A stretch of 63,904 bases of DNA, filler included, from Stramenopiles sp. TOSAG23-6 (taxonomy: Eukaryota): NCBI GenBank assembly GCA_900128565.1. It is 4 parts of 4 records of this genome, joined end to end, with 100 filler letters (N's around TTAATTAATTAA, not from the genome) between each part and the next. Parts side by side here need not be neighbours in the genome. Positions count along the whole stretch, not along the records: positions 17,563 to 34,970 come from LT636080.1; 3 more parts are not named here. One strand, given 5' to 3'. The translations under genes were made by a program, and so were the position numbers. How positions within the stretch are numbered: the stretch's first letter is position 1; each line of letters opens with the position of its first letter. Positions 1 to 33,287 of this stretch are shown one piece after another. The notes beneath the pieces are model-generated. The model saw nothing but the letters and a program-made list of their open reading frames with translations. It did not search any database and was not told where the DNA came from.

Positions 1-32
1 CTGTATACTTTTGAAAATATTTTCTTCATCAT

Positions 33-6257: not shown

Positions 6258-6700
6258 GACTGAATGCTTTTTCGTAAAATTTGTATGTGCTGGTATATCT
6301 AGTTAATATCGTCAAGGTTGGCTTTTCTTCAGCTCAGCGATCAGAATAGTATAGCCGCACACACAAGCTAACAACTTATATTTGAAAGGATGAACGACTG
6401 ATTATTTACCTATATATTCGTTGCGCGGCAATATTCGTTTTTAAATTTTTCAAAAGTAGAATTTCGATTTTTATCGATTTTTGGCGGTCACAAAATTTCT
6501 CCTTGACAGACGGAAGGAAGGAGGAACGACAGGAAATTAAGTATACAAGTAAAACTTTGCTAAAACTTTGTTCCCTTTGTTTTGGGCATTTATAGGATCA
6601 ATCAAAGAAAATTGTTCAAAGGACAAACCCTTTCACATTAACTCCTGTCAAGGATTCGTTTGAGAAGAAAGTAGGAGATAGAACAAATCCTATCGGTAGG

Positions 6701-7459: not shown

Positions 7460-7616
7460 CAGTTGAAATGTGAAACTAATGTAATTGTTCCAAAAATGAG
7501 TGAGAAGTGTTGTTTACGTAGATTTAAATTTTTGGGAGTCAGTGCCACGTGTGACCAAATATTAATCCAGCTACTACAGGCCGGTACTCTACACTACAGT
7601 AGAAAAAAATAGAATT

Positions 7617-8731
7617 ATGACAAAATCTACTAGCACTTTTCAATGGTTAGCTGCTGCATCTGCTACTCTTACTATTGCTACAAGTATTTTCTATTTTTGG
7701 CAACGTAGAATTGCTAAAAAATATAAAAAGACGGAGGATATAGTTAATGGCGAGGCAATCTTTGTAAAAGAACGAATGACAATGATAATAACAACTTCAC
7801 CTACCCAGTCAAACCCCTCAACATCTCTGATTGAAGAACTGTTTCATTCATTTTCCTATGTACCTGAATTAAAGCACTGCCATAAAATTATTGTTTGTGA
7901 TGGCATAAAAATTGCTCACGAAGGTCGCAAGTCTAAATATCGTAGTGGAATCATTACAACCAAAGCTCTCGCGGCATACAACTTATACTTGAAAAAAATT
8001 CGTCAGCTCGCTACACGTGAGGAAGGTCAGTGGACAAATGTTCAGATTTTGGAACTAAATAATAGGAATGGTTTTGGTTTTGCTGTTAAAGAGGCACTAG
8101 AAAAGGTAAAAACTGACTATGTCATGGTCTGTCAACATGTACGTTTTCATCATTTTGATTTCAATTTTTTTTTTTGGTATGAAATTTTGTACCTAACGAT
8201 TTTTTTTTGACATTTTTTTTTTTCACACAACATGACCGACTATTTGGACAAAAATGGCACGGTTTGCCAATGACCCTTCGTGCTCTAGAAGCATTTCACG
8301 ACGAAGTTAGTTTTATTGGTCTGCCAACTAATTCTACACGTGATTATATTCATCGTATGCGTGTATGTTTTAATTTCAATTTTTTACATATTTTTTTTTT
8401 CGTACGAAATTTTGTACCTAACAAATTTTAGTTTTTTTTGAAATATTTTTTCACAATACATAGTCGATTTCATATCGATCTCTCAAAAAAGTGGAAGCAC
8501 TTTAAAGGTGGAGTAAAATTATTACCAATGCTCGTTTGGTTAGATAGTACTCATATAGCATCCGTTCAGTACTATAGAGATTTCGTGTTTAATAAAGATC
8601 GAAAATTGGTCTCAAAAGGTGGTTTTATGTATGTTTTCAATTTTTTTTTTTTTTTTTTTTAGTATGAAATTTTGTACATAAAAAAAAAAAAATTTAAAAT
8701 TATACGTAACAAAAAAAACGAATTCAAAAAA
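7617..8731 (+). CDS. Putative GT-A-fold glycosyltransferase-like protein, 3'-truncated at the fold-back axis
   Basis: N-terminal TM segment, then IITTSP, IIVCDG, GFGFAV and VMVCQHD motifs. Removing introns 8139-8233 and 8363-8461 (both GT..AT) gives a continuous frame. A third intron starts at 8629. Confidence 0.65.
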
Positions 8732-9846
8732 TTTTTTGAATTCGTTTTTTTTGTTACGTATAATTTTAAATTTTTTTTTTTTTATGTACAAAATTTCATA
8801 CTAAAAAAAAAAAAAAAAAAAATTGAAAACATACATAAAACCACCTTTTGAGACCAATTTTCGATCTTTATTAAACACGAAATCTCTATAGTACTGAACG
8901 GATGCTATATGAGTACTATCTAACCAAACGAGCATTGGTAATAATTTTACTCCACCTTTAAAGTGCTTCCACTTTTTTGAGAGATCGATATGAAATCGAC
9001 TATGTATTGTGAAAAAATATTTCAAAAAAAACTAAAATTTGTTAGGTACAAAATTTCGTACGAAAAAAAAAATATGTAAAAAATTGAAATTAAAACATAC
9101 ACGCATACGATGAATATAATCACGTGTAGAATTAGTTGGCAGACCAATAAAACTAACTTCGTCGTGAAATGCTTCTAGAGCACGAAGGGTCATTGGCAAA
9201 CCGTGCCATTTTTGTCCAAATAGTCGGTCATGTTGTGTGAAAAAAAAAAATGTCAAAAAAAAATCGTTAGGTACAAAATTTCATACCAAAAAAAAAAATT
9301 GAAATCAAAATGATGAAAACGTACATGTTGACAGACCATGACATAGTCAGTTTTTACCTTTTCTAGTGCCTCTTTAACAGCAAAACCAAAACCATTCCTA
9401 TTATTTAGTTCCAAAATCTGAACATTTGTCCACTGACCTTCCTCACGTGTAGCGAGCTGACGAATTTTTTTCAAGTATAAGTTGTATGCCGCGAGAGCTT
9501 TGGTTGTAATGATTCCACTACGATATTTAGACTTGCGACCTTCGTGAGCAATTTTTATGCCATCACAAACAATAATTTTATGGCAGTGCTTTAATTCAGG
9601 TACATAGGAAAATGAATGAAACAGTTCTTCAATCAGAGATGTTGAGGGGTTTGACTGGGTAGGTGAAGTTGTTATTATCATTGTCATTCGTTCTTTTACA
9701 AAGATTGCCTCGCCATTAACTATATCCTCCGTCTTTTTATATTTTTTAGCAATTCTACGTTGCCAAAAATAGAAAATACTTGTAGCAATAGTAAGAGTAG
9801 CAGATGCAGCAGCTAACCATTGAAAAGTGCTAGTAGATTTTGTCAT
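8732..9846 (-). CDS. Mirror copy of the putative glycosyltransferase-like gene
   Basis: Reverse complement of 7617..8731. Confidence 0.65.
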
Positions 9847-10003
9847 AATTCTATTTTTTTCTACTGTAGTGTAGAGTACCGGCCTGTAGTAGCTGGATTA
9901 ATATTTGGTCACACGTGGCACTGACTCCCAAAAATTTAAATCTACGTAAACAACACTTCTCACTCATTTTTGGAACAATTACATTAGTTTCACATTTCAA
10001 CTG

Positions 10004-10762
10004 CTATGATACTTCTTTCACTTTAATAACAGTATGTTCCTCAAGAACATCTTCAAAACGATCAACACAAGATGTGCAACAGTTGTGAATACAAAATGGA
10101 GGAGCGTCAGTACAACGACCTGTCCGTCTCCAATGAAGCCAACAAAGTTTCATACAACTAAAACGTAAAGGACGAACCCATCGACATACTTCAACAAGAA
10201 AAAGGCCAACAAAATATTCTAATACATCAGTAAAAGTTTCCATCCAACTCTCTTGTTCATCGTGAAATTGATAGAGAGGCTCTTTCCACCAAAATCCATA
10301 ATGATCGGCAATTTGATAAAACACAAAGAAAAGAAAAAGAGGCGGGAACCACCAACCTATTGCCCCAAATACTATGTGAAAAGGAGCACAACAGTGAACA
10401 CTTTTCTTTAAATCACCATTTCCTGGTTTTCCTGCAATTATACCGATTGCAATATAAACAAGCAACGCTGACAAAAGAAGAAAAAAATAACCTACTTCAA
10501 CCTTATCCGAGCAACCTGGAACTTTTGCTGAATTAGTTTTTTTTGACTTTGAATTTTTTGTACTTTTGTTTGAGGTAGCTGGTGCAGCCGCTCCATTACG
10601 CATATCAACTACAATACATGTTCTTTTACCTATTACAGAATTCTCCCCTAATTGAAATCCTGCATTCAAACCTAGATTCATACCTCCAGTAGGCATTGGA
10701 TTTTCAGTGTCCTCTTTTTTTGCTCTAGGCTCCCTTTCAAACATTTCCAGAGCTCCAGGCAT
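10004..10762 (-). CDS. Mirror copy of the hypothetical membrane protein
   Basis: Reverse complement of 6701..7459. Confidence 0.7.
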   Translation of the reverse strand: MPGALEMFEREPRAKKEDTENPMPTGGMNLGLNAGFQLGENSVIGKRTCIVVDMRNGAAAPATSNKSTKNSKSKKTNSAKVPGCSDKVEVGYFFLLLSALLVYIAIGIIAGKPGNGDLKKSVHCCAPFHIVFGAIGWWFPPLFLFFVFYQIADHYGFWWKEPLYQFHDEQESWMETFTDVLEYFVGLFLVEVCRWVRPLRFSCMKLCWLHWRRTGRCTDAPPFCIHNCCTSCVDRFEDVLEEHTVIKVKEVS

Positions 10763-11205
10763 CCTACCGATAGGATTTGTTCTATCTCCTACTTTCTTCT
10801 CAAACGAATCCTTGACAGGAGTTAATGTGAAAGGGTTTGTCCTTTGAACAATTTTCTTTGATTGATCCTATAAATGCCCAAAACAAAGGGAACAAAGTTT
10901 TAGCAAAGTTTTACTTGTATACTTAATTTCCTGTCGTTCCTCCTTCCTTCCGTCTGTCAAGGAGAAATTTTGTGACCGCCAAAAATCGATAAAAATCGAA
11001 ATTCTACTTTTGAAAAATTTAAAAACGAATATTGCCGCGCAACGAATATATAGGTAAATAATCAGTCGTTCATCCTTTCAAATATAAGTTGTTAGCTTGT
11101 GTGTGCGGCTATACTATTCTGATCGCTGAGCTGAAGAAAAGCCAACCTTGACGATATTAACTAGATATACCAGCACATACAAATTTTACGAAAAAGCATT
11201 CAGTC

Positions 11206-12629
11206 ATGTTACTCAAAGATCGTTTACACATAGTATTGGAGTGGCTATCATGTAAGTCAGTAGCAGCATCAACATTTAGTGTTATTATATCGTATGTATT
11301 CTGGAATTATTTTCGTCATAAAATAGCGAAAAAACGCCAAGCGATCAAAACAACGAAAGATGCCGCAGTATCAAATGAAAAGAAAGACAATCTTCTTAAG
11401 AGCAGATTTGATGCTGCTGTGAAACACGCAGGATTGATATCATCAATTTCGACAGAAGAGCAACTGCAGCTATATGCATTCTTCAAACAGTCTAAATACG
11501 GAAAGTGTACAGGCGAACGACCTGCACTATTCGAATTTCGTGCACGCGCAAAGTTTGACGCCTGGTTCGCTCTTGGAAATATGCCACAAAATGTAGCAAT
11601 GTATGTTTTATTTTTTTTCAATTTCGAGTTTTTTTTCCGTACGAAATTTCGTACCTAACGTTTTTTTTTTGAAATATTTTTCCAAAATACATGGAACTAT
11701 ATATAAAACAAATCGAAAGACTAGCTGTAAATAATAATATGAAAGATAATTTATCCAACGTAAAAGTCCCACCCAGTACTAACCCTAACCCTACTCAAAC
11801 AAAGAAACAAGGGCTAATGAAAGATAATTTATCCAACGTAAAAGTCCCACCCAGCACTAACCCTAACCCTACTCAAACAAAGAAACAAGGGGGGCTAATG
11901 GGTCCTGTTCAAAGTACGTTACAATTTGATCCGAGTACACAAGAAAATCATAACTCTAAAAAGGATATTTTTTATTATGCAAGTAATGGAGATTTATCTA
12001 CCGTAGAAAAGTTACTTGATGAAGGCGCAGATGTATGTTTTATTTTTTTTCAAATTCGAAATTGTTTTTTCATACGAAATTTTGTACCTAACGAAAAAAA
12101 TTTCAAATATTTTTCCAAAATACATATAAACGCAAAAGATGGCGATGGCGGGACAGTTCTTCATTGGTCTTGTGACCGAGGTCATGTACGTTTTCATCAT
12201 GTTTTTCATTTTTTTTTGGTACGATATTTTGTACCTAATGATTTTTTTTTATTTTTTTGTACCAAATTTTGTACTTACGAAAAAAAAATTAATTTGTTGA
12301 AGTATTCTTTCACAATGCATTTAAATCTTGTAAAATTGTGTTTGCGAAGAGGGGCTACAATTGATACAAAGGATTCTACTGGTGTCACACCACTGAGTAT
12401 GTACGTTTTCATGATGATTTTTTTTTTTTTTAGTACGAAATTCCATACCTAACGATTTTTTTGTGTGGCATATTTTTTCACCAACATGGCTTGCTGCTGT
12501 GAGCATAGTCAAGTTGCACTTTTACTAATCCAAGCTGGCGCAGATCCAACAATAAAAGACGATGAGGGAGAGTCACCAGAGGATTTTTTCAGTGAAGAAT
12601 TGAAGAGTTTGCTTAATGAAAAAAAATAA
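11206..12629 (+). CDS. Acyl-CoA-binding domain + ankyrin repeat protein, ACBD6-like, 5 exons
   Basis: ACBP motif LQLYAFFKQ...RAKFDAW...AM|ELYI. Ankyrin repeats GAD|INAKDGDGGTVLHWSCDRGH|LNLVKL...TPLSM|ACCCEH are restored by removing introns 11601-11692, 12033-12125, 12186-12320 and 12401-12487. Confidence 0.88.
11601..11692 (+). mobile_element. Introner-like intron, GT..AT (representative family member)
   Basis: AT|GTATGTTTT...CCGTACGAAATTTCGTACCTAACG...GAAATATTTTTCCAAAATACAT|G. Removal restores the ACBP segment VAMELYI. Confidence 0.85.
12033..12125 (+). mobile_element. Introner-like intron, GT..AT
   Basis: Same family motifs. Removal restores ankyrin GADINAKD. Confidence 0.85.
12186..12320 (+). 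mobile_element. Introner-like intron with duplicated core, GT..AT
   Basis: Two GTAC..ATTTTGTACYTA cores. Removal restores RGHLNLVKL. Confidence 0.8.
12401..12487 (+). mobile_element. Introner-like intron, GT..AT
   Basis: Removal restores TPLSMACC. Confidence 0.8.
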
Positions 12630-12798
12630 AATTTTAATACATAAGTAAAGAACAATATTTGTGATTTTTCGAGATACGTGTTTTACTCCTATACCACATC
12701 GATCGAGTCAGCGCGCACCATACCCACCACAAAGCCCCCCAGCGTACGTGTCCTTCGTTCTGAAACATTCAAGGAAATATCATTACCAAATATCAATT

Positions 12799-15700
12799 AT
12801 GAGACCCATTATAATACTGATTCTTATGGTTACCTGCATTATAGTTATTGCATCCAAGAAGGGGAATAAGAAGAAACAGAAGAAAAAACGGCATAAACCT
12901 CAGGTAACAAGTGGGAACAATGATGACTGGATTAGTCTCTTACAATTAGCTCAAGGTTCCACTGACTTTTACGCCTGGCTTGATGCCAGCACTAGAGAGG
13001 ACATACATCAAGTTACTAAACCGGAACCTATCCATCCAGAACCTGAATCTGCACTTGATCATCCAGAACCTGAAGGAGAAGAAATCGCTGTTTTTCTCGA
13101 TAAAAAAATTGAGCTGCCGCATGAAAATGAGTTGTCACACAGACAAAACACGACTTCACAATATACGATTCGCGTTAATGGTGACATCTTGGACTTCATC
13201 AACAATGTAGCCACAAAAGAAGCGAAGAAATCATTTTTTAAACATTTACAATATATAAGTGAAGGAGATTTTAGCCGTGGTCATGCCAACACTGTTCAAG
13301 GTCATCATGGTATGAACGCAAGAATACGTAAAGTTCGAATCGGGCAAAAGCATGGTGGTGCCAGGCTTGAGTTTGAACTTTACGACAACAACATCGTAAA
13401 TGTCACAAGATTTATACCACATCATAAGAATATTGCTAGAGCGTCGGGATCTGTCTCGAAGGACGACTCTCAAAAATATGTTGAATTAACGGAACAGGCA
13501 ATATTATCAGGTTCTGTAGGAATTATGGATGCTGCAGATGATGATCAAGCAGCAGCAGCTACACAAACGCAGAGACACTATAATTTTGTTCCGAATGGAA
13601 ACCCAATGTACTTTGAGAGACAATCCAAAAAGGACAATTATCGTGCACTTCTCGAGCTAAAGGAGGAGCAAGAGAAAATTCGTGACCACAACACAGGCAA
13701 ATTTCTGTTTCTTAATGCACCACCTGGTACTGGTAAAACTGTACTTCTTTTATCACTAATGATTGAGAGTGATAGAATGCCGGAAGTAGTAGAATTGGAG
13801 CTAGCACCAGAACTAGAACCGGAACCAGAACATATTTTACCTGCACACCTTGATCCTAGCCAAGCGTCCAAACAAATATACTTTTCGAGAAGTCTCAACC
13901 TAACCCGAGAGACTAAAAAGGAACTCATGCCGATGGAAGAGGGAATGGCTGAACGTATGATATTTGCACAAATCGATCAATCCGTTACTGGAGCCGCAGA
14001 TGAAGCTACATTTGTGACTGAAGAAATGTTTGCCAGCCGTTTTAATGAGTTTAAAAGTCTTGCAAAGGTCAATAGCAAAGAGTCGGCATTAAATGAACCT
14101 GCAAGTGTTGTGTGGGCGCATATACAACATATTATCAAAGGATCTGTGCTTGCAGCAAAGAATGGAAGAGCACTTAATCTTAAGGAGTATAAAGAGAGTG
14201 CAAAGAAAAATACGACTCAATCAGATGAAATATTGGAAAGCATTTTCAAGGTCTATGAAGTATATGAATCATACAAACGAAGTAAGGAATTTGATACACT
14301 TGGTGGCAAGGACAAACCAATTTGGCTTGACATTGGCGACTGTGTGTTGTCACATCTCGGCACGGCTACTGATGAGTTCACTCGTATATACGTAGATGAA
14401 GTGCAAGATGTAACATCGGCTATGATCTTACTATTTTTACGTCTTGTGGGGAATAATCCAAATAGGCTTACTCTTGCCGGGGATGTTGTGCAACAGCTCG
14501 TTCCTGGTGTAATGTTTCGTGTTGAAGATGTCAAGGATATTTTATACTTTGTTGAATCTGAGAATTCTTCTCGTGTAAAATTAGATGCTGAGACAAAAGA
14601 ACCAAAGACATTGAAAACTAATTATCGCAATAGTAGTGGGGTTGTGGAAATGGGTAATCATGTAAAGAATCTTCTGAGGACACAATTCAAACTTACAAAT
14701 GCAGTCGAAGATTCCGGTATTGTAACAGGTGTACCTCCTGTAATATGGGGCTATGCGCATCCACGTACATTACAGGACATGCGCACAGCTTTGGGTGATG
14801 CACCAAATGCGACACTGATCTTTCGTACCGAGGCAGAACGTCAAGTGTTTTTGAACGATCCATTATTTAGTCGTAATGGAAGTAATGCAAGCTTGCGTGG
14901 ATCATCGCCTGGCACGAATGATAATCTACAAATCAATACTGTGAGTTTGCACAATGCGAAAGGACTGGAGTATGAAAATGTGATTCTCGTAAATTTCTTT
15001 TCATCATCTGTTGAGCAGATTAAACATAGTTGGAGGCACTTACTGAATACTACTAGTGAATCAGCGGAAGACAAATTACGACGGGAAGGATATTATGATG
15101 CAATGGAATACGAGTTGAGAATACTGTATACTGCAATCTCTCGAACAAAGACTCGTTTGTTTATATTTGAGACGCAACCAATATGGGAGAAGGAGCTCAG
15201 TAAATATGTAATTGATCATTGGTTGAAGCCGTTAGCAGCAATGGGACACGTGGAACCCGAACCAGAACTAGAACCTGAAAAAACACATGATGTCACAGTT
15301 TCTGACCGAAATATTGTTACTATCCTTTCACCAGAACCATCTAGTGACCTAACTACAATATTACAGCTTGAACAACTTACTGCAACACAAAAGAGACAAA
15401 CTGCAATGAGAAATGTTCTCCTTGTGGTGCAAAGTGGCGACGACCTCGATCAATCATACAAGATGTATCTATTACAACAAGCGCAAGTCTTAGCTATGGA
15501 AGGAAATTCTCCAGACCTACAAGGTAGAATCAAGACTGTAGAGTACTGTGTGGCAGGTTTGAACGGCACATTTGAATCAAAAGCTGATACAATTTCATAT
15601 ATGATGACTTGTATTCCTGTTGGACTTACTATGTATGCTTCAAAAGCACTTATTGAGTATGGTAAGAATGCGACTTTGTCTGCAGATAAGAAAGAAATTT

Positions 15701-17430
15701 TTCGAAAAATTGCTCTTGAACTTGGTGTAAATGAATCAGCATTGGATAATTTTCAGGGTAAAACAAGCGGGCATACCTCTGTCCATAAAAGCAAGGCGAC
15801 CGGGCAAGTTGATTTAGATATTAATGCTGTTGATGTGGACGGCAACACTGCTTTAATGAGAGCAGCAATTCGTGGCATTAAACGAGATGTATATGAATTG
15901 CTACGACAAAATGCTAATGTAGACATTCAGAACAAGTCGATGGAAACTGCTTTGATTCTTGCTGCAAAAGATAACCATCGCGCGGTGGTGGATAAGCTGC
16001 TCCAAAATGGGGCAAAACTTGATATAAAAGATCACCATGGTAAAACTGCATTAGACTATGCCACTGCATTGGAAACAAGAGGAGTCCGGAATGCCATAGA
16101 GCGACAGAAGGCCAAAAATACAGTATTATCTGTACAACTCCTTGACTATGTTACGACGGGCCAAAAGGGTCGTTTGAAGACATTGTTATCAACCAATGCA
16201 TTTGATGTAAATGAAAGTTATTTTAATGATGTTAATTATGTCACATTATTGATGGTTGCTTCTCAAAATGGTCATACAGATACTGTGATTACTTTATTGG
16301 AACACGGTGCAAATGTTGAGGCAAAAGATGATAATGACTTGACGTCATTGATGGCTGCTTCCGACAATGGTCATACAGCAACTGTAATTGCTTTATTGGA
16401 ACGAGGTGCAAATATTGAAGCAAAGGATAATAATGGCGTAACTTCATTGATGACTGCTTGTTTTCGTGGCCAAACAGAAACTGTGAAAGCTTTATTGAAA
16501 CGTGGTGCAAATATTAATGCAAATTCTAATACTGGTTGGACAGCATTGATGGCTGCTTCTGATAAGGGCAATACAGCAATTGTGAATGCTTTATTGGAAC
16601 GCCGTGTAGCAATTGAAGCAAAGAATGATGCTGGATGGACGTCGTTGATGATTGCTTCTCAAAAAGGAAAAACAGAAACTGTGAATGCTTTATTGGATCG
16701 CGATGCAAATATTGAAGCAGAGGATAATATTGGGACTACATCATTGATGGCTGCTTCTGTAAATGGCGAAACAGATACTGTGATTGCTTTATTGAAACGT
16801 GGTCCAGATATTGAAGCAAAGGATCATAAGGGCTGGACATCATTAATCTGGGCTGCTTCAAAGGGCCATACAGCAACTGTGAATGCTTTATTGGAACGCC
16901 ATGCAAATACTGAAGCAAAGGCTAATGATGATTGGACACCATTGATGTTTGCTTCTGGAAATGGCTATATAGAAATTGTGAAAGCTTTATTGCTAGGCGG
17001 TGCAGACGTTCATATACCGGATAATAATGTGTTGATACCATTGACGTTTGCTTCTCAAAAGGGTCATACAGAAGTTGTTGAATTACTTCTCGCTAATGGT
17101 GCTGATGTCAATCTTGCTCAAATGGATGGAATTACCCCATTGTGGATTGCTTCAGAGGTTGGTCATGTTGGAGTAGTTCGATTACTTCTTGGTAAAGGTG
17201 CAAATGTCAATCAGCCTAAACAAAACGGAGTTACGCCATTGCTTATTTCTTCTCAAAAGGGTTTTGAGGGAGTAGTTCAACTACTTCTTGAAAAGGGTGC
17301 TGATGTCAATCATGCTGATAATTATGGAAGTACCCCATTGCTTATTGCTTCAAAGTATGGTTATGCGGAAATAATTCAACTACTTGAAGCTGCGAGTGCG
17401 ATTGCTGAAGCAGGTGAAGATGGACCATGA
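12799..17430 (+). CDS. TRANK1-like protein: N-terminal hydrophobic segment, RelE-like domain, UvrD-type SF1 helicase, long ankyrin array; intronless
   Basis: SF1 motifs APPGTGKT, IYVDEVQD, AGDVVQQ, LKTNYRNS, HNAKGLEY, LYTAISRTK. More than 15 ankyrin repeats. The first ATG is at 12799 (MRPIIILILMV); the ORF track starts earlier at a GTG. Confidence 0.85.
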   Translation: MRPIIILILMVTCIIVIASKKGNKKKQKKKRHKPQVTSGNNDDWISLLQLAQGSTDFYAWLDASTREDIHQVTKPEPIHPEPESALDHPEPEGEEIAVFLDKKIELPHENELSHRQNTTSQYTIRVNGDILDFINNVATKEAKKSFFKHLQYISEGDFSRGHANTVQGHHGMNARIRKVRIGQKHGGARLEFELYDNNIVNVTRFIPHHKNIARASGSVSKDDSQKYVELTEQAILSGSVGIMDAADDDQAAAATQTQRHYNFVPNGNPMYFERQSKKDNYRALLELKEEQEKIRDHNTGKFLFLNAPPGTGKTVLLLSLMIESDRMPEVVELELAPELEPEPEHILPAHLDPSQASKQIYFSRSLNLTRETKKELMPMEEGMAERMIFAQIDQSVTGAADEATFVTEEMFASRFNEFKSLAKVNSKESALNEPASVVWAHIQHIIKGSVLAAKNGRALNLKEYKESAKKNTTQSDEILESIFKVYEVYESYKRSKEFDTLGGKDKPIWLDIGDCVLSHLGTATDEFTRIYVDEVQDVTSAMILLFLRLVGNNPNRLTLAGDVVQQLVPGVMFRVEDVKDILYFVESENSSRVKLDAETKEPKTLKTNYRNSSGVVEMGNHVKNLLRTQFKLTNAVEDSGIVTGVPPVIWGYAHPRTLQDMRTALGDAPNATLIFRTEAERQVFLNDPLFSRNGSNASLRGSSPGTNDNLQINTVSLHNAKGLEYENVILVNFFSSSVEQIKHSWRHLLNTTSESAEDKLRREGYYDAMEYELRILYTAISRTKTRLFIFETQPIWEKELSKYVIDHWLKPLAAMGHVEPEPELEPEKTHDVTVSDRNIVTILSPEPSSDLTTILQLEQLTATQKRQTAMRNVLLVVQSGDDLDQSYKMYLLQQAQVLAMEGNSPDLQGRIKTVEYCVAGLNGTFESKADTISYMMTCIPVGLTMYASKALIEYGKNATLSADKKEIFRKIALELGVNESALDNFQGKTSGHTSVHKSKATGQVDLDINAVDVDGNTALMRAAIRGIKRDVYELLRQNANVDIQNKSMETALILAAKDNHRAVVDKLLQNGAKLDIKDHHGKTALDYATALETRGVRNAIERQKAKNTVLSVQLLDYVTTGQKGRLKTLLSTNAFDVNESYFNDVNYVTLLMVASQNGHTDTVITLLEHGANVEAKDDNDLTSLMAASDNGHTATVIALLERGANIEAKDNNGVTSLMTACFRGQTETVKALLKRGANINANSNTGWTALMAASDKGNTAIVNALLERRVAIEAKNDAGWTSLMIASQKGKTETVNALLDRDANIEAEDNIGTTSLMAASVNGETDTVIALLKRGPDIEAKDHKGWTSLIWAASKGHTATVNALLERHANTEAKANDDWTPLMFASGNGYIEIVKALLLGGADVHIPDNNVLIPLTFASQKGHTEVVELLLANGADVNLAQMDGITPLWIASEVGHVGVVRLLLGKGANVNQPKQNGVTPLLISSQKGFEGVVQLLLEKGADVNHADNYGSTPLLIASKYGYAEIIQLLEAASAIAEAGEDGP

Positions 17431-17462
17431 ATGATGAAGAAAATATTTTCAAAAGTATACAG

Positions 17463-17562
17463 NNNNNNNNNNNNNNNNNNNNNNNNNNNNNNNNNNNNNN
17501 NNNNNNTTAATTAATTAANNNNNNNNNNNNNNNNNNNNNNNNNNNNNNNNNNNNNNNNNNNN
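17463..17562. other. Artificial contig linker (N44-TTAATTAATTAA-N44)
   Basis: Six-frame stop spacer, repeated at 34971-35070 and 52369-52468. Confidence 0.98.
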
Positions 17563-18460
17563 CTCTTGTGTGGAATCACCGCTCGGTAAATCCATATTTC
17601 TGTCTAGAATAAATGATGGAATTTGTGACTGCTGTGATGGAAGTGATGAAAAATCTACCATTGGGTGCATAAATGTGTGTAGTATCGAGCAATCTGAGTT
17701 GAATGCGAAGTATTCGGGACGTCTTTCTGGATGTCAAGCAAAGCTCAAACTATTAGAATTAACTCACTCCAAGCAAGTTTTCTATGAAAAGACACAGAGA
17801 GAGACAATAGAAAAGCAATCGGAATTCAATAAACAGCTGAAATTGTTAAATTTGGAATTAAATAATCATAGAGCAATGCTGCAAGAGAGGAAACAACTAC
17901 ATGAAGAATTTCAGCTTAAAGGATCAGCTTATTTAGGTTTAGTACGTTGCTTGAAAAATAGTTCTCCAGATGAAACTTCCCACTGTTCTTTTTCTAATAT
18001 AGAAATATTGAATGTTATTAATCATATGGTTGACACAAATCCGACTGAAGTCAAACGTGTATCCGAAACTTTACTAAACTCGAATTCGATGAGGAGAATT
18101 TCAACTGATAATAAAAATAAAGAAGATTGCTCTTGTAGTAGTATTGATTATGACACCTCATTTAATCTACAATTAATTTGGAGACAATTGTCCCAAAAAC
18201 AAGAAATTCCGTCAATTGAATACATAGAAAATCAAAAAAGAGAAATTGAGGATTCAAAAAATAAATTACAACGGATTCAACGGATGTCAGAGAAAGAGTA
18301 TCTTTTAGATTTTGGTCCTGATCGTATTTGGTGGCCGTTACTCGGTAAATGCGTTGAAAAAAAAGAATATAGCGTATGTTTGATGAAATACGCAAAACAA
18401 GGTAATGAAAGTTTAGGTAGATTTTCTGGCTGGGTCGATCCAACTGAGTCAATACCCAAT
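17563..18460 (+). CDS. Glucosidase II beta subunit (PRKCSH)-like, partial
   Basis: SRINDGICDCCDGSDE, a coiled coil, then the start of an MRH domain (FGPD..W..L.GKC...YSVC...SLGRFSGW). 5'-truncated. The expected end of the MRH domain is missing after intron 18461-18552. Confidence 0.8.
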
Positions 18461-18552
18461 GTTTGTTTTATTTTTTTTCAATTTAGAATTTATTTTTCGT
18501 ACGAAAATTTGTACCTAACGATTTTTTTTTGAAATATTTTTCCAAAATACAT

Positions 18553-19374
18553 GAATTACACGAACTTATTTTGTCAAATGCAGGTTCGAATCTTGAGTGG
18601 CATCGACAACAAAGCAGTGAATATGATTTCAGTGATGGCTTTGTTGTCCCAGACGATGCCCCAATTGAAGAAGCAGAGTCAAGTTCTACAGAAAGTCCAA
18701 AACAAAACATTACTAGGACACGTTTACGGAAACGTCGTCATCGAATTCAACGTAATAACCCTAACCCTAATAACCCTACAAATACAAATTGTCTGCCGGA
18801 TTTTGATATGACGACTCCACCTAGACAGAAGTTAAAACGCTTAAAAAGAGTCACAGATACAGAGGATAATACTTTTAGTACTACGACTCGTATTAATTCA
18901 CACGTAGGAATAAGTAATAATGAAGAAGTTAAGAATTTTGACCCTAGCCCTAACCCTAAGAGTTTTGACAATCGTAAAAGCCCTAACCCTACTAAGAGTA
19001 ACAAAAGCAACGTTTGGAATGATTTTGCTTTCCGTAAAACCGCAAAAAAAGCAAACAATATTTTACATGCGTCCACCACACATCCTTGTAGTACTGACCA
19101 AAACAATAAAAAAATAAATATAATAAGTGAACAAAATAGTTCTGAAATTGAAAATTCAAAACTAGTAAAGTTTGAAAATAATAATAATGAAAATTCATGT
19201 CGAGAAAAGGCACGACTTTCAAAACATGAAATGAGACGACAAGACCTTTACTTTCAAAACATGGCGAAAGAGAGAGCAAAACAACGTCTACAAGAATTTC
19301 GTTTGTCGAGGTCTTCAGTGATACCTGAAACTCCACCTGACTATTCAAGAACAAGAAGGAGTAAATACTTTTAG
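18553..19374 (+). CDS. Terminal exon of a hypothetical low-complexity protein, probably a different gene from the upstream exon
   Basis: Open 273-codon frame after the GT..AT intron 18461-18552. No MRH residues. Contains several NPNP/SPNP telomeric inserts. Confidence 0.55.
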   Translation, partial: ELHELILSNAGSNLEWHRQQSSEYDFSDGFVVPDDAPIEEAESSSTESPKQNITRTRLRKRRHRIQRNNPNPNNPTNTNCLPDFDMTTPPRQKLKRLKRVTDTEDNTFSTTTRINSHVGISNNEEVKNFDPSPNPKSFDNRKSPNPTKSNKSNVWNDFAFRKTAKKANNILHASTTHPCSTDQNNKKINIISEQNSSEIENSKLVKFENNNNENSCREKARLSKHEMRRQDLYFQNMAKERAKQRLQEFRLSRSSVIPETPPDYSRTRRSKYF

Positions 19375-19430
19375 GGTTAGGGTTTGGGTTGAAACTCCAC
19401 CTGACTATTCAAGAACAAGAATGAGTAAAT
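19326..19430 (+). repeat. 41-bp direct duplication flanking a telomeric insert
   Basis: TGAAACTCCACCTGACTATTCAAGAACAAGAA(G/T)GAGTAAAT at 19326-19366 and 19390-19430, with TTAGGGTTAGGGTTTGGG between them. Confidence 0.9.
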
Positions 19431-19511
19431 TCATAAATGATGTAAATGATGTAAATTATGTTTAATTGATATTGTAAAGTNTTTTTTTTTTGTCTTTTTG
19501 TATGAATACAT

Positions 19512-20096
19512 TCAAAGAATTGCACATTTTCCACTCTTTTTTTTGTTAAGACTGGCTTTTACTGCTGCTGAGAAAACTTCCTTAAGTCCTTCACCAGTAA
19601 TGGAAGCACATTCAACATATTCTACAGCTCCAATTTCCTTCATTAAACTTTGAGCCTCAGCAGTCGAAATAGGTTTTTTTTTTCGATATGCCAGTGCTTC
19701 AATTGTGTCATCATCATCCCTTAGGTCCATTTTAGTACCAACAAGTATAATATTAGCCCCACTAGATTCAGAATTTATGATACTAGGAAACCATTTCTCC
19801 CGAACATTAGAGAACGAAGCTGGGCTGATAACGGAAAATGCAATAAGGAATGTATCAACTTCTTTATATGCCAATCCGCGTATATTATCATAGTCTTCTT
19901 GCCCTGCTGTGTCCCATAGGTTTAGTCTTATTCTCCCGTGTGAAGTAGTGTCAATATCAGCTGTGTAGTTATCAAATATAGTTGGTACATAATCTTCTGG
20001 AAAACTACCCTTTGTATATGATATTAACATACAGGTTTTTCCAACAGCACCGTCACCAATAGTAACGACCTTGATGCTTTTACTTGGCTCTGCCAT
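19512..20096 (-). CDS. Rho-family (Rac-like) small GTPase, intronless
   Basis: GDGAVGKT, YVPTIFDNY, LWDTAGQEDYD, GTKMDLR, ECAS, and a polybasic tail ending in CAAX (CAIL). Confidence 0.95.
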   Translation of the reverse strand: MAEPSKSIKVVTIGDGAVGKTCMLISYTKGSFPEDYVPTIFDNYTADIDTTSHGRIRLNLWDTAGQEDYDNIRGLAYKEVDTFLIAFSVISPASFSNVREKWFPSIINSESSGANIILVGTKMDLRDDDDTIEALAYRKKKPISTAEAQSLMKEIGAVEYVECASITGEGLKEVFSAAVKASLNKKKSGKCAIL

Positions 20097-20365
20097 TGTA
20101 CGTAATCCAAATAGAAATGTTGGAAAAAAACTATATAAATCTTCTTATCTCATCTCTCGCTTGGAATTTTTGGAGGAACGAACTTTGAACATTTGAAAAT
20201 TTAAATTGATGTTTCGTACACGAAATCTAGTTAATTTGTTTGACACGTGTCCCGATCATTCATTGACTTGTATGGTTGTACCACAACACTATAAATATAT
20301 ATTATAAAGTTTCAATTTTGTGAGCTTGAAATGTGTAATACAATTTGCTGACCGTTAAGAAAGCG

Positions 20366-21398
20366 ATGGTGCTTTTGTTGAAACAACTCCGTTATTCAGC
20401 GTGTCTTCTTGATAAGGGCAGTGTATTTTTTAACTCTGTATATCGTGTTTTTTCTTCGAAAGAATCATCTTTCACTGAAGAAGAAGTTCAAGACAACAAG
20501 GGTAAAGCTACCATTGGTTCAACAACAAGGCGCGGTATAAAGAAGTCTTGTATTACAGAGAATGTATCAGAGAGGCATTCTCGTTCTAATTGTAGTAAAC
20601 ATTTGCCTACTGTAGACCGAATCGCGCACTTGCTTGATGCCTTGGAAAAGTCACGCTTCCCAGATATTCAGACAAACCTCCGTTCAACTGGAGATATTTC
20701 TATTCAGACAAACCTCCGTTCAACTGGAGACATTTCTGTTCCAAGAAATCTAAAACACCAACACATGAGTTGCGATAACAAACCATTTGATATTATAAAA
20801 CACGAAAAACATACTTTATCAGTAAAAAAAAAGACACTTTTACATGTACAAAAAAAGAAAAAAGTAGAGTCTGCAACAAAATCTTCTGAATTAAACAAAG
20901 CTGTACGATATCATGACTGGGAGCTATGTAAATCTCTTGACGTTGAAGTAGAAAATATAAAGTCACAAATGAAACAAATAGATTCAGATATCGTAGTTTG
21001 TGATATTAAATTAGCCATCATCCAGGATGATTGGGAAAACGCTATGATTCTCTTAAGTTGTACGTTTTTAAAATTCCATGTGAAATATTGTTTTTTTATA
21101 TGAAAATATGTACCTAACAAAAAAAACTCTTATTAAAAAAATATTTTTTTACAATATATATTGTACGGAGAGTTCCATATTATGGAATATTTTTGAAGAT
21201 ATTGAAGTTTTGGGGCTATCGACAACTCAACTTCAAGTTCCTTTAATGAGAGCTACTTGGAGAGAAGTACAAAATGAGCATAGAGTTTCTCGGAATTCTC
21301 GGAATGGTATTGATTATGAAAAGGATGAGATATTTTCAAAAGGATCTCTTCAGCGTTTAGACTCAATTTTTCGAAGATTTAATGTCGAATCTTATTAG
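20366..21398 (+). CDS. Hypothetical protein, 2 exons
   Basis: Intron 21060-21159 (GT..TAT) joins LLS-YCTESS in frame. Contains a 36-nt tandem duplication (IQTNLRSTGDIS x2). Confidence 0.55.
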
Positions 21399-21716
21399 TT
21401 ATTAATAGTTATGATTAAATAAATGTTGTATATGCACTGTAACTATTATTCCACGTCCATGGCCATGACATTGTCCGATTTTTTTGTTCAGCGCGTTTTT
21501 TTTTGACTAAATCAAATCATGATGTCGATGTCGTCACTACTACTGTACCAGGTATACTTCTAGTAGGCTACAATAATATATTTGTTATATTGAGTATTGT
21601 ATTGTGGTATACATTTTTGTAATTGGATTCATTGAGCATACCAACAGTAGGTAGATAAAGGATAGAAGTTATCTGGCAATTGCGAAATCGGATATATAAT
21701 TCTATACACTTGTTAG

Positions 21717-22304
21717 ATGTTTCTGAACGTTTCTACACGTGTTGCATTGTGGAGTATTCGCCATGTTTCAACTTCACTACGCCAACAACCGCTCAGGCAT
21801 CGTTATCCGTATGTAGTTCGTTCATTCCATGGTAGTCGTATATTATACCTTAGTGAAGACTCTATAGAACGAACCACTGATTTTGGGCGTTGCTATAGAC
21901 GACGTGATAATGGTAAGTGGCAAGCTCATGACCTAAACGGAAAATATAGGGGACAGTTTAACTCAGCTGAAGAAGCTGAAGCATGCTTAAAAGCATCTAG
22001 TAATAGGAATACGGATTCCAATTCTAATAAAAAGATCCATCCAGTGTTTGGTGAAACTGCTATTGATAACAATACTACTAAAGTTGAGCGCCAAAGAATT
22101 CGAAACTCTGATGGTTTTCTTGAATTTGACGAAGTCGAAGCTCCGTGGAAAGACCCGCACGGAGTGAGGAATAAACAGTCTCGTTTCGAAAATTTATTAG
22201 ATGACACAAATTATATCTTTCGAAAATCAAAAGGGGCATATTGGGTTGTCACTGGAGTTAGTGTAGTCACTGTAGCAGGGGCAATGATGGGATTTTATAC
22301 GTAA
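21717..22304 (+). CDS. Hypothetical protein with mitochondrial-presequence-like N-terminus, AP2-like motif and C-terminal TM segment
   Basis: R/S/L-rich N-terminus lacking acidic residues; YRRRDNGKWQA...GQFNSAEEA; hydrophobic C-terminal tail. Confidence 0.6.
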   Translation: MFLNVSTRVALWSIRHVSTSLRQQPLRHRYPYVVRSFHGSRILYLSEDSIERTTDFGRCYRRRDNGKWQAHDLNGKYRGQFNSAEEAEACLKASSNRNTDSNSNKKIHPVFGETAIDNNTTKVERQRIRNSDGFLEFDEVEAPWKDPHGVRNKQSRFENLLDDTNYIFRKSKGAYWVVTGVSVVTVAGAMMGFYT

Positions 22305-22476
22305 AAATTGTATCAAAAAAGTAAACAAAATGTATTGTGAAAAAAATTTAAAAAAAAATTAAACAAAAATTGTTAGGTACAAAATTTCGTACAAAAACAA
22401 AATCTAACGGTTTCATTGTAATTTGTTTTAATAATATAAAAGATTATCTAAAACACTTTCCTTCGCCAAAATATAC

Positions 22477-22610
22477 ATCAAATACGTCGTTTTATCTCTT
22501 TTGATCAAATCAAACACGTTGTTTTATTATCTCTTTTGATCAAATCAAATACGTTGTTTTATCTCTTTTGATCAAATCAAACACGTTGTTTTATTATCTC
22601 TTGTGATCGA
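22477..22610. repeat. Tandem ~30-38 bp repeats (ATCAAAYACGTYGTTTT(ATT)ATCTCTTTTG), about 4 copies, overlapping the stop of the minus-strand gene
   Basis: Seen directly in the sequence. Confidence 0.8.
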
Positions 22611-24433
22611 AGTGCGGCGATATTTCTACCTCCACCGTTCCAATATTTCAATCGTCCATCAAAGACATTTCCTTCCCGTGGACCTCGAGGATCTGTCTGA
22701 GAATCAAATATACCACTAGAAGCCATCGCTGGGGCACCAGGTACTGATTTTAATCCCACAGGTCTGTGTAAATCATCTCCTCCTGGTACTCCTCCTAGAC
22801 AATGAACGTTACTCCTGTACACTAAAAAAATATGCAAATCTGAAATTTGTTGGGTAAAAAATTTTCTAAAAAAAAAAAAAAAAATTTTTGAAATGAGAGA
22901 AAATATACTTTTGAATTTTTGCAGCAACGTCAAGCTTATTCTGTGATGTATATGATCCATCCAAGCTAACTCTTTTACCTCCATCAGATGCATAGCCATA
23001 TGTATTTTGGAAAAATATTTCAAAAAAACCCGTTAGGTACAAAATTTCGTACGAAAAAAAAATCGAAATTGAACAAAAATTAAACATACATGATCCGTTG
23101 ACATCTCCTTGAGCTTCGTGTAGATGAGAGAATACTGTGTCGTAAAAAAATATTTTTTTTGTTTTTTTCGTAAAACACAATTCGTTAGGTACAAAATTTT
23201 CTTAGTAAAAAACACATCTTTCAAATTCACGATGAAAACTTACCTCTACTCTTTTGTGGATCATCCCCAGCAACCATCATTTTACTAGGCTTGGACCACT
23301 CGTCAGTGACAACCCCGTGAGGGACAAGGTAGCTTCCTACGTTTACGTTTTGTGAAAAATATTTTTTTTTTTTTTTGGATAATAAAAAAAAAGTCGTTAG
23401 GTACAAAATTTTCTATGAAAAAAAAAAAAAAAATGAATGAATGATGAAAACATTCAAGTTTGGTATTCCAAATTCAGACTGTTTTTTCGGGGGAGCTCCA
23501 GGTTTCGGATCAAAATCGAATTCTTTTGTCCCTGCAGCACTTGTCGCAGTCAATCCATTAGGCCCTAACTCTAGATTCCCTCTTGGTTCGGTTCGTCTCG
23601 TTTGCATTTCAATATATCGAGATTCTGAAGATGCTTTTAGATGACAAGTAAAGTGACCGTTTTGCTGAGTTATATATTGTGAAAAAAAAAAAATGTGAAA
23701 AAAAATGTTAGGTACAAAATTTCGTACAAAAAAAAATTAAAAATTAAAAAAATTAAAAATGAATGGTGAAAACGAACAAGGCACTTTTGCTATTCTTTGC
23801 TTTGAATGCTCCTTCTTTCAGTGATAAGCGCGGCACGTCTGGTGTTCCGGTCCATTCAAAATTAATAGTACTGAAATTAGTTTTCCCAGCAAATTTGCCA
23901 CCTCCTTGATTTTTTTCCAATTGAGGAACACCGCCAAAACGAATAGAACTTTTCATATTTTTGTGTTGAACTTTCTTTGGTGCAGTCTTATCCTCTGGTC
24001 CCGGTTTGTATTCAAATGATAGGTTTGTTCGCAAGGCTGGATTTTGTGAATATTCTGGTTGAACGCGCTTCGGTGGCATCTCATACAACGCCTGTGTTTC
24101 ACTTCGAACGACGTTTTGCTGCCCTTCGAAGGCATCGGCAACACCTCGAGAAGTGGTGAAGGAAACTTCTGTTGAAGGTTGAGCTTGTTGTGAAGTTGAC
24201 TGAAATGTCTGAGTCTGTGTATTCAGTGACATATTTTGCCGCCCTCGTTGAGATAAATATTCGTGACTCTTCCTTACTGCTTCCTGTCGTCTATCTTCTT
24301 CTTGTTGAGATTTTCGTTGTTGTGATTTTTCGTACGCTGTTTTGTCACGAGATGAAGTAGTTCCTTTAGAAGTTGGTGAAATGCTACCAAAGTAATTTTC
24401 CATCCCAGAGTATGTTTCAATTGTACCACTCAT
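22577..24433 (-). CDS. Hypothetical protein, 6 exons
   Basis: One continuous frame after removing family introns 23672-23777 (GT..AT), 23345-23455 (GA..GT), 23135-23243 (GT..AG), 23000-23089 (GT..AT) and 22815-22908 (GT..AG). Confidence 0.7.
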
Positions 24434-24714
24434 ATTGACGTCGTGGAGTATTTATAGCTTGCTTTCAAAAACCGTAATGCGATATTATTAAATTGCTGCT
24501 GGAAATAAGTAAAGAATCAATCACTTGCAGGGTAATTATATATAATAATGTGTTTGATGATGATGACCAGTAAGACTTGATAAGACTGACACTGTCAATG
24601 AAAGGTTCCAAAACTCCCGGTCGCGCGTGTAACGGCCGAAACGGTTGTTTTTTGACAAACGAAATAGAATTGAACATTTGAAGCTTACTATGTGTAAGAT
24701 ATGACCCTTTATCA

Positions 24715-26202
24715 ATGTCACGCGGTGTTCGAGGATTAAAGGGAATAATTGATGAAAGAAGGCTAGGCGAAAATGAAACTTTCCGAATCAGTAGTGAAAA
24801 TAACGAAAATTGTATATACACCAAGCGGTTACTAGATGAATTACAAAACATTTCCACAATTCGAATGAAAGATGAAGGACAGCTCCAACAGATGTTACGG
24901 AACATCAATGAAAAAGACCAAGTTCAATATTTACGGGAGGCCCATAAGCAATATAGAATACGTGAAGATGAAAGAATTTCAATCGAAGATAATATCATTT
25001 CCTCCCTTCAAAGCGCAGTTGAACGATTTGGAGGTGAAATTGAGTTTCTATTTTTGATTTTTTTAGGAATAGAGGAGAAAATGATCGATTCCACTCATTA
25101 CAACCAACATGAAAAGGCATATGCTTTTCAAGTGAAACATTTTCAGACACTGCTCGATTATGTAGCACGTTCGCGATATTCATTTGGCGAAGTTNTTTCT
25201 AAAATACTTCAACGTGCTGTTGCGATTCACGACGCAGGGACTGATTCATGTGCTACAATTATCTCAATGGCTGCAATTGTATCAAAAAAAGCATACTCCG
25301 CTGCCATGTGTGCTTCAAACAAGGCAACACGTTCAATAAATGGTGGTGTTGCGATACAGTCTATTCATTGTCGAATCATTCAGAGATTTTTTCGTATAGC
25401 TCTTATTAAACGCCGACGTCAAATAAAAGATTATATTAAATCTATAAAGGAGAAGCATACTGCAACTACGCTGCAAATGTGGTATAAAAGGCAATACAAC
25501 AAATATATATGGAATGATAAATGGAAAAAAAGTGCACGGTCTACAGCGATACGTGTCTTATTTTCCAACAAAAATAATAGTATCAAAAAGAAAAAAATGA
25601 AAAGTCCATTATTTGCACTATTGAAACTACAAGCATTCACAAGAAAATATTTGAGTGCTAGCCGTTATTATTGGATGAAATGTTTTGCAACACTTCGTCG
25701 ACGTAGAGATGCAATGAAAATGTGGCATGTACGCAAAACTAAATTAGGTTATTTGGTGGATAACTTGTATAACATTTCAAGTGTATATAGCAAGTACAAA
25801 TCTGAATTGTATCGGATAGAAGAGAATATCGCCAGCCAAACATTTAATTGGGAATCTCAATGGAAACAATACAAGCAAAATATGAGAAAACATATCATGC
25901 GTAAACAACTAAGCAATGATTGGATTATTTTTGATGATGCAGAAAATAATAAAGAACAGTTTGAAAAAGGAAGATATTTCAATACCAAAACGGGTAAAAG
26001 GCAAATCGAACATCCAAATGAAAAGCTTGTGAAAAACACTTGTAAATTAGAGATAGTTCGGGCTAAACAAATTTTACAGTCTCATGTTGATCCGTTACTT
26101 GAATACAAAGACGAAATTGTTTCTTTATCATCAATAGATTACAATGAATTCGAAGGGATTTTACTTCAATCAATTGTAAAAATGTGGTGTTCAAATAATT
26201 AA
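24715..26202 (+). CDS. IQ-motif / WW-like domain protein, intronless
   Basis: IQ-like IIQRFFRIAL and KLQAFTRKYL; WW-like NDW...YFNTKTG...EHP. Confidence 0.7.
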   Translation: MSRGVRGLKGIIDERRLGENETFRISSENNENCIYTKRLLDELQNISTIRMKDEGQLQQMLRNINEKDQVQYLREAHKQYRIREDERISIEDNIISSLQSAVERFGGEIEFLFLIFLGIEEKMIDSTHYNQHEKAYAFQVKHFQTLLDYVARSRYSFGEVXSKILQRAVAIHDAGTDSCATIISMAAIVSKKAYSAAMCASNKATRSINGGVAIQSIHCRIIQRFFRIALIKRRRQIKDYIKSIKEKHTATTLQMWYKRQYNKYIWNDKWKKSARSTAIRVLFSNKNNSIKKKKMKSPLFALLKLQAFTRKYLSASRYYWMKCFATLRRRRDAMKMWHVRKTKLGYLVDNLYNISSVYSKYKSELYRIEENIASQTFNWESQWKQYKQNMRKHIMRKQLSNDWIIFDDAENNKEQFEKGRYFNTKTGKRQIEHPNEKLVKNTCKLEIVRAKQILQSHVDPLLEYKDEIVSLSSIDYNEFEGILLQSIVKMWCSNN

Positions 26203-26263
26203 ATTAAAAAAAAACGAAATAAAAAAAATAGTAATTACACAATTTTACTTAGGAAGTTGTAGA

Positions 26264-28212
<1,949 letters not shown>

Positions 28213-28402
28213 CTTGAAATGTGTTTCTATATGCAAAAGTTATTGAAACAAAAGTAACAAAATTCAATCATCTTTGTTGACCAACAATCAAATTCTGACC
28301 CTCATTTTTTGCGATTTCGTGAAATGTGTAACACCAAAAGAATACTATTAATATTTTTAGAAAAATACCAGTTTTATTACTACTATCAATTCAAATACAA
28401 GT

Positions 28403-33033: not shown

Positions 33034-33287
33034 ACCCCATAGATATCCTTTTTATTTGTGTGTATTAAAATTAAAATAATAATGAAAACAAAACCTAAAT
33101 TTTCTTTTTGATACCCGGTAACGTATTTTTTCGCGACGACACAAATGACAGTTTGTTGTGTACCATATAATTATTAATTCAATAACTGGTTGTATAAGCT
33201 ATAATTTATCATTATTTAATCAGTTACGATTGTCTGCTCACTTGTCAAAGAAGTTATAGAACTAGAAAGTAATTTCAAAACATTTTG

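Follow-up and report, generated by a model that had tools for sequence, protein, structure and literature searches.

A predicted gene in DNA of Stramenopiles sp. TOSAG23-6 (assembly GCA_900128565.1), resembling the PRKCSH-like family, ends at a stop codon supplied by a short telomere-like sequence, which lies in the last exon between the two copies of a 41-nt duplication. The gene is found on one (LT636080.1) of four contigs that together make up the window, by which we mean the whole stretch of 63,904 nucleotides analyzed here, filler included. On balance, the structure is likely to be a short interstitial telomeric sequence (ITS) that arose when a break or nick in this last exon was repaired. 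It is one of 13 insertion events of this kind recognized in the window. The features discussed below are collected in Table 1.

Structure of the Insert at the Gene End

The two copies of the 41-nt target are identical at 40 of 41 positions (G at 19359 versus T at 19423), with a start-to-start spacing of 64 nt. A repeat of 41 nt with a single mismatch lies well outside what chance would produce, and this pair, at 19326/19390, is the longest direct repeat of the interval 18000–21000. The insert between the copies comprises 23 nt in total, namely the filler ACTT, the hexamers TTAGGG TTAGGG TTTGGG (19371–19388, TTAGGGTTAGGGTTTGGG) and one more T at 19389, and it contains the exact 11-nt core TAGGGTTAGGG that is shared with the other sites in the window. 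The sequence-only reading had described the order of duplicate, ACTT, telomeric repeat and duplicate, and this description is borne out by the two 41-nt copies, apart from the final T, which it omitted. Its placement of the stop codon within the telomeric insert was also correct: the TAG at 19372–19374 is in frame with the open reading frame (ORF) 18487..19374.

Together, the second target copy and the 23-nt insert add 64 bases of DNA. This addition shifts the frame, so that an end of ...RRSK-FINDVNDVNYV* becomes ...RRSK-YF*. The longer tail, FINDVNDVNYV, is presumably the ancestral gene end, and the insert stands 11 codons before the old stop. The change to the flanks consists of a 41-nt duplication and a 4-nt addition, both of which are classes described for vertebrate ITS. 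Simple slippage, which yields head-to-tail copies with no spacer, was considered for this site and is ruled out by the 23 nt of foreign sequence between the copies.

Telomeric Inserts across the Window

Two of the four contigs are palindromic and almost double the counts made on the raw window. Site counts given after removal of the mirror copies refer to 46,224 unique bases. In the whole window, mirror copies included, (TTAGGG)2 at no more than one mismatch is matched 27 times, compared with 0.09 matches expected from shuffles. The unique DNA holds 15 telomere-like blocks and 14 exact TAGGGTTAGGG cores; for 300 shuffled 11-mers, the mean was 0.01 and the maximum 1. Two of the 14 cores are found within one 78-nt tandem duplication (5572–5724), which brings the number of insertion events to 13. 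This duplication lies in a linker exon of an ankyrin-repeat gene and carries an insert in each copy, and the insert is older than the duplication.

At every site the insert is about two to three repeats long, giving uniform short tracts of 11–20 nt. Lone TTAGGG hexamers outside the blocks number six, while composition-matched GGG-containing hexamers number 6–17. The density of 13 events in 46 kb, or about one per 3.5 kb, is very high. The sites are also clustered: four fall within a 650-nt stretch in the host exon, an arrangement reached by 136 of 20,000 random placements, and a single contig (contig C, 8.6 kb unique) holds seven. No head-to-head telomeric pair exists among the 15 blocks. A single TTAGGGTAACCCC at 32768–32780, a tiny head-to-head telomere-like pair, adjoins a copy of a repeated intron family (32783–32883) and may be due to chance.

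Flanking Duplications and Junctions

Telomeric and random sites were scored for duplications in the same way: the end of copy 1 and the start of copy 2 both had to lie close to the insert, no more than a few bases away. The threshold of 11 matching bases or more is reached at 4 of 15 telomeric sites versus 28 of 1375 random sites (binomial P = 2e-4), and that of 18 or more at 3 of 15 versus 10 of 1375 (binomial P = 1.6e-4). When low-complexity sequence is excluded under a stricter rule, at least 12 matches occur at 3 of 14 telomeric and 11 of 621 random sites (binomial P = 1.7e-3). An enrichment of adjacent direct repeats, which the sequence-only reading had named as a check on its proposal, is thus present within the window. 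The duplicated sites are 19370 (41 nt, period 64), 37572, 18941 and 43208 and, more loosely, 39170.

When read in the G-strand orientation, the upstream copy ends in register with the telomeric repeat at three sites: ...CTA|GGG at 37572, ...CTT|AGGG at 18941 and ...ATT|AGGG at 39170. The far junction at 37572 shows an overlap, AG, as well. A G precedes TAGGG at 5 of the 14 cores, and this base may be part of the target rather than of the insert. Perfect target copies accompany a perfect repeat at 37572, and diverged copies accompany variant hexamers (TTTGGG, CTAGGG) at 19370 (40/41) and 18941 (12/13), a pattern that fits insertion events of different ages. The periods of the in-frame exonic inserts are 27, 33 and 78 nt, and this preservation of frame argues that they are real, selected events rather than artefacts.

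Small duplications occur in the window both with and without telomeric filler. Clean tandem duplications that contain no insert are found at 20665–20741 (36 nt x 2.1) and 22477–22608 (67 nt x 2.0).

Orientation and Reading Frame of the Inserts

All eight internal exonic inserts (5592, 18759, 18948, 18981, 37577, 39174, 39396 and 54093) carry the C-strand as the sense strand and, in the frame AAC CCT AAC CCT, encode Asn-Pro-Asn-Pro. None is read as Thr-Leu, Leu-Gly or Arg-Val, an outcome with P = 1.5e-5 if the four stop-free frames are equally likely. The insert at 39630, which is probably intronic, also has the C-strand on the sense strand, so that inserts probably enter introns too. Only the insert at the end of the PRKCSH-like gene has the G-strand on the sense strand. 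Among the 10 sites with a known gene strand the orientation is therefore 9:1 (two-sided P = 0.02). The sites at 35267, 40552 and 43209 each have a short open frame with NPNP, followed by a stop within one to two codons at 40552 and 43209.

Selection can account for much of this bias in orientation and frame. Asn and Pro would suit disordered, Asn-rich tails, and the GT and AG dinucleotides and G-runs of the G-strand could disturb splicing or transcription. The proportion of inserts that lie in exons is a separate matter. Of the unique DNA, 74.5% is taken up by ORFs of 120 codons or more; 11 of 13 cores fall inside such an ORF, and 8 of 13 are in confirmed exons. Under uniform insertion with survival in exons limited to a single orientation, a single frame and lengths that keep the frame, about one in ten would be expected to be exonic, and with an assumed share of 0.115, a value that rests on our own assumptions, the probability of at least 8 of 13 is 2e-5. 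The exonic excess implies that insertion favours genes, that non-coding copies are lost fast, or that exonic copies are favoured.

A broader reading of these data, which we put forward tentatively, is that telomere-templated activity acts as a frequent transcription-linked insertional mutagen, writing new codons and occasionally stop codons. Two-repeat units would then enter transcribed DNA preferentially, with the G-strand antisense, for example through the extension of nicks in the template strand or through cDNA 3′ ends that later convert the gene. Such a mutagen would explain the 9 of 10 sites with the C-strand in sense, the clustering within single genes and the lack of depletion in coding DNA despite the occurrence of just one of the six combinations of orientation and frame.

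Two broader claims of the sequence-only reading can be judged against this census. Its suggestion that a telomerase-assisted repair mode is unusually active here agrees with the very high density of inserts in the window, with telomerase as the putative agent. The further suggestion that this repair reshapes gene ends was overstated, as the usual outcome is an internal, in-frame Asn-Pro-Asn-Pro and there is one clear case of an altered gene end. The inserts at 40548 and 43208 may be further cases. The 41-nt period at 43208 would shift a frame.

Origin of the Inserts

Telomerase probably primed the scar in the PRKCSH-like gene, as judged from the junction bases. A 3′ end at ...GTAAAT would first gain a short filler, after which telomerase would add about three telomeric repeats, and the extended end would be rejoined with an overlap of 1 nt, compared with 0–3 nt across sites. 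The 41-nt target duplication would result either from a staggered cut, with the strands cut 41 nt apart and both overhangs filled in, or from re-priming of the extended end 41 nt back on an intact template. The same process would have acted on 13 or more occasions within the 46 kb of unique sequence, adding about two to three repeats (about two rounds of telomerase) each time. Selection would keep the inserts that do little harm, which in exons are only those read as Asn-Pro-Asn-Pro, while the stop-creating insert would survive through its position 11 codons from the gene end.

Several observations weigh against this origin by telomerase-primed repair. No recognizable flanking duplication exists at 9 or more of the 14 sites. 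The junction at the gene end is out of register, with ...AAAT and then ACTT preceding TTAGGG. The uniform length of about two to three repeats, with no long tract, is not the obvious product of a processive telomerase. The window contains neither a terminal array that would mark TTAGGG as the telomere repeat of the host nor three perfect TTAGGG repeats in a row. Coding DNA is not depleted of inserts, which is hard to fit with uniform insertion followed by selection, and the palindromic contigs show that the assembly data are not clean. In addition, no empty allele or orthologue was found in the protein search, the metagenome scans or the listed contigs of the sequencing runs. When the last exon of the host gene served as a protein query, no relatives were returned among candidates of 149–476 aa, and the metagenomes scanned gave 0 matches to a 25-mer from the duplicated target. 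Among the contigs listed for run X1, one stops within copy 1, at 19355, and the following one begins at 19482; none of those listed for runs X1, X3, X4 and X5 bridges 19355–19482. Neither a 64-nt deletion nor a joint at the site is present among the matches listed. Because no empty allele was found, the insertion is read from the internal duplication alone. This duplication and the continuation of the old frame in copy 2 speak indirectly for a site that was once empty.

A less likely origin, at roughly one chance in a handful, is templated filler without telomerase, in which microhomology-mediated end joining or a template switch copies about 20 nt from telomeric DNA, a telomeric transcript or another interstitial site and then returns 41 nt upstream. 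A duplication with a short foreign insert is a typical product of template switching, as in polymerase-theta joining. The uniform 11–20 nt would suit a copied patch better than processive addition, and the insert-free tandem duplications at 20665–20741 and 22477–22608 are also in keeping with such a process. An inverted telomeric site, which has a variant third hexamer too, is found 391 nt away (78% over 37 nt). However, the flanks of the two sites (18948 versus 19372) agree at 18 of 32 positions, which is no outlier among the pairs of sites (best pair 19, mean 10.5), so that a special relation of the insert at the gene end to the site at 18941 is not supported. Only telomeric sequence recurs as filler, and the in-register junctions at three sites fit priming by telomerase, although microhomology joining also yields them. 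It is improbable, by comparison, that the two-repeat units are not neutral scars but motifs, kept and spread as sites for telomere-repeat-binding factors or as a favoured Asn-Pro module. The constant size and the same 11-nt core at 14 of 14 sites are consistent with a motif, as are the undepleted coding DNA and the single orientation and frame of 8 of 8 internal exonic sites (P = 1.5e-5). On the other hand, the sites are found in exons, an intron and gene ends, with no fixed place upstream of genes, the target duplications show arrival by insertion, and the copy at the gene end is reversed and destroys the reading frame. A function would, moreover, account for retention of the units and not for their origin.

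We consider it very improbable that the inserts are artefacts of whole-genome amplification or assembly that are absent from the cells. Chimeras do exist in this assembly, given that two of the four contigs are palindromic with N positions mirrored in contig C; the best-matching runs, X1 and X2, which are small and date from 2015, may be the source of the stretch itself, and no contig among those listed bridges the site at the gene end. An artefact would nevertheless require a double template switch in the space of 23 nt, occurring at 13 positions and each time leading into telomeric sequence. One base distinguishes the copies, a variant unit is present in the repeat and the exonic inserts are all frame-keeping, and contig B, which carries the site, is matched overall at 95–99% likeness in seawater metagenomes from another study (X3, X4). 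Finally, a stretch of 64–70 nt that starts at GTAAAT (19361) and extends to its second occurrence (ending at 19430) could be spliced as a GT...AT intron, in which case the old tail would still be made. A GT...AT intron is indicated at 18461–18552, and removal of 19361–19430 (70 nt) would restore the old frame, but we find this scarcely credible: the stretch has neither the GTA...TAC termini nor the CGTTAGGTAC...CGTACG core of the repeated GT...AT intron family, on which grounds membership in that family was rejected, and no RNA contig among those listed lies on it. The junctions, inspected by eye, show no consistent AT...AT or element-end remnants of the excision of an intron element.

Comparison with Known Interstitial Telomeric Sequences

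Insertion of ITS at double-strand breaks in vertebrates leaves the flanks unchanged or is accompanied by deletion, addition or duplication (PMC2246262 Table 1; PMC7215372 Table 5). Duplication is found at 4.6% of rodent and 16% of primate ITS loci (PMC2246262 Table 1) and at 4.5% of those in the horse, for which staggered breaks are given as the cause (PMC7215372 Table 5 and text), and random additions occur at 16–20% of vertebrate ITS insertions (PMC2246262; PMC7215372). A break end in register with the repeat, a frequent feature of these loci, serves as the argument for telomerase priming in vertebrates (PMC2246262; PMC7215372 Table 6). The short ITS of vertebrates (Nergadze et al. 2007; Santagostino et al. 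2020) likewise consist of a few internal TTAGGG units with the same classes of flank change and, as in the window, most sites are without a duplication. The structure at the end of the PRKCSH-like gene mostly fits this group, although the in-register feature fails at this site. The parts of PMC2246262 and PMC7215372 considered here describe no vertebrate case in which a 41-nt duplication shifts a stop codon. The inserts in the window further differ from vertebrate ITS in their protist host, their frequency of about one event per 3.5 kb, their uniform two to three units and their mostly exonic Asn-Pro-Asn-Pro reading. Empty orthologous sites, which are defining for vertebrate ITS, are missing here.

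Plant telo-boxes, regulatory elements of about 1.5–2 telomeric units in promoters and 5′ leaders, are alike in size. The sites in the window, in contrast, lie in exons, an intron and gene ends, some of them with target duplications. A regulatory telo-box was rejected for the site in the PRKCSH-like gene, which lies at the 3′ end of an ORF; eight other sites lie inside exons. In the target-primed reverse transcription of non-LTR elements, a target 3′ end primes the copying of RNA and the insert is flanked by target duplications of variable length. The flanked insert is similar in the window, but the template is telomeric only and there is no element body, poly(A) or endonuclease site.

In the TERC-ITS of rodents, the non-telomeric bases that precede the repeats are copies of RNA sequence adjoining the template, and the authors liken the process to retrotransposition of telomerase RNA (PMC2246262). 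A few non-telomeric bases likewise precede the repeats in the window, but ACTT and the recurrent G are not assignable in this way here, and at 37572 the end bases are those of the target. A marine protist, the coccolithophore Calcidiscus leptoporus, has TTAGGG at contig ends and frequently at internal positions, and the part of the report considered here gives no junction anatomy, reading frames or mechanism (PMC13518057). For stramenopiles, haptophytes and others, an ancestral TTAGGG repeat has been inferred (PMC3622300).

Host Gene, Neighbouring Features and Assembly

The upstream exon of the host gene appears, from its sequence, to resemble the glucosidase II beta-subunit-like family, matching Pfam PF12999 (PRKCSH-like) with an E value of 2.7e-7 and 31 bits, under the 34.9-bit cutoff. 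The last exon matches no Pfam family. An alternative GT-AG intron at 18465–18583 is frame-keeping like the GT...AT intron that joins the two exons. Among the contigs listed for the RNA run (X5), there are matches on the convergent GTPase gene and on the upstream exon, and none on the insert.

The GT...AT intron belongs to a repeated family whose copies are 92–100 nt in length, have the ends AT|GTA...TAC|AT and the core CGTTAGGTACAAAATTTCGTACG, and interrupt ORFs in both orientations. Of the 53 repeat blocks in the unique DNA, about 40 belong to this family; examples are found at 18461–18552, 23000–23093, 26353–26448, 29267–29369 and 5337–5432. Its copies have very high depth in the sequencing runs compared, and a metagenome scan with a 20-mer of the core gave 0 matches.

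The four contigs of the window are connected through stop-codon linkers of 44 N + TTAATTAATTAA + 44 N. The palindromes of contigs A and C probably arose as artefacts during amplification or assembly; single-cell amplification is known to yield inverted chimeras of this type. In practical terms, palindromic contigs inflate counts made on the assembly nearly two-fold. Scans of the window with Rfam and for tRNAs gave no match. An intron-free ORF of 1593 codons at 12649–17430 (mirror copy 33–4814) shows weak UvrD-like helicase matches and many ankyrin repeats, and its 99-nt repeat units appear as tandem arrays. An ORF on the most AT-rich contig includes a lengthy poly-Asn stretch of AAT/AAC codons (38434–38691).

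Table 1. Positions of the telomeric inserts, the host gene and other features in the window.
Feature	Position	Strand	Remarks
Copy 1 of 41-nt target duplication	19326-19366	+	Sequence, repeat search
Filler ACTT	19367-19370	+	Out of register with repeat
Telomeric insert TTAGGG TTAGGG TTTGGG T	19371-19389	+	G-strand is sense strand
TAG stop	19372-19374	+	From first hexamer; in frame with ORF 18487..19374
Copy 2 of 41-nt target duplication	19390-19430	+	Sequence, repeat search
Presumed ancestral ORF end	19431-19465	+	With copy 2: ...RMSKFINDVNDVNYV, TAA 19463-19465, ORF 19322..19465
78-nt tandem duplication	5572-5724	-	26 codons, 2.0 copies, 98% matches; insert in each copy, STNPNPT
In-frame insert, NNPNPNNP	18755-18779	+	C-strand sense
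In-frame insert, PSPNP	18941-18960	+	13-nt copies 18930-18942 and 18957-18969, 12/13 identical, period 27
In-frame insert, SPNP	18979-18992	+	
Insert	35266-35282	+	Possibly coding
Insert, SCHLETT-NPNP-SCHLETT	37552-37607	+	Perfect 22-23-nt target copies, period 33
Insert, CNPNPN	39149-39197	+	ATGAAAATA on both sides, ~10 nt filler on one side
Insert, SPNP	39393-39408	+	
Insert after GTATGT start of repeated-family intron	39626-39643	+	Probably intronic
Insert, VNPNPIP	40548-40567	+	28-codon open frame, then immediate stop; possibly coding
Insert, KNPNPT then stop	43186-43246	-	T-rich 20-nt copies, 18/20 identical, period 41; possibly coding
Insert, ANPNPNA	54091-54107	-	In long ORF
Decayed telomere-like 13-mer, NNPNLN	54668-54680	-	
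Upstream exon of host gene	17564-18460	+	5′ side cut by contig start; open frame
Intron, GT...AT, 92 nt	18461-18552	+	Removal joins exons in frame; copy of ~100-nt repeat family
Last exon of host gene	18553-19374	+	Low-complexity tail; ends at TAG inside insert
Convergent Rho/Rac-type small GTPase	19512-20144	-	Pfam Ras family, E 4.7e-45
Contig A	1-17462		Perfect palindrome, centre 8731/8732
Contig B	17563-34970		Carries the site in the PRKCSH-like gene; no palindrome
Contig C	35071-52368		Palindrome, 18 differing positions, N positions mirrored, centre 43719/43720
Contig D	52469-63904		No palindrome
Linkers	17463-17562, 34971-35070, 52369-52468		Genes across linkers need not be genomic neighbours

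Significance

The main limits of this analysis are a sample of 46 kb, an artefact-prone assembly and an insertion that is read without an empty allele. ITS as repair scars are already known; what may be new here is their density, their uniform two-repeat size and the strand-biased exonic Asn-Pro reading. A limited literature search found no paper on exonic Asn-Pro telomeric inserts or on dense ITS with target duplications in a protist.

Most documented telomeric inserts from break repair come from vertebrates, in which they are uncommon and almost confined to non-coding DNA. In the free-living marine microbe considered here, most of the inserts are found in coding exons and one of them moves a stop codon. 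If the whole genome is alike, telomere-templated repair would be a measurable source of protein change and of small duplications in this organism, and each site would serve as a natural record of the place and strand of a DNA break, making breakage accessible to study in an uncultivable organism.

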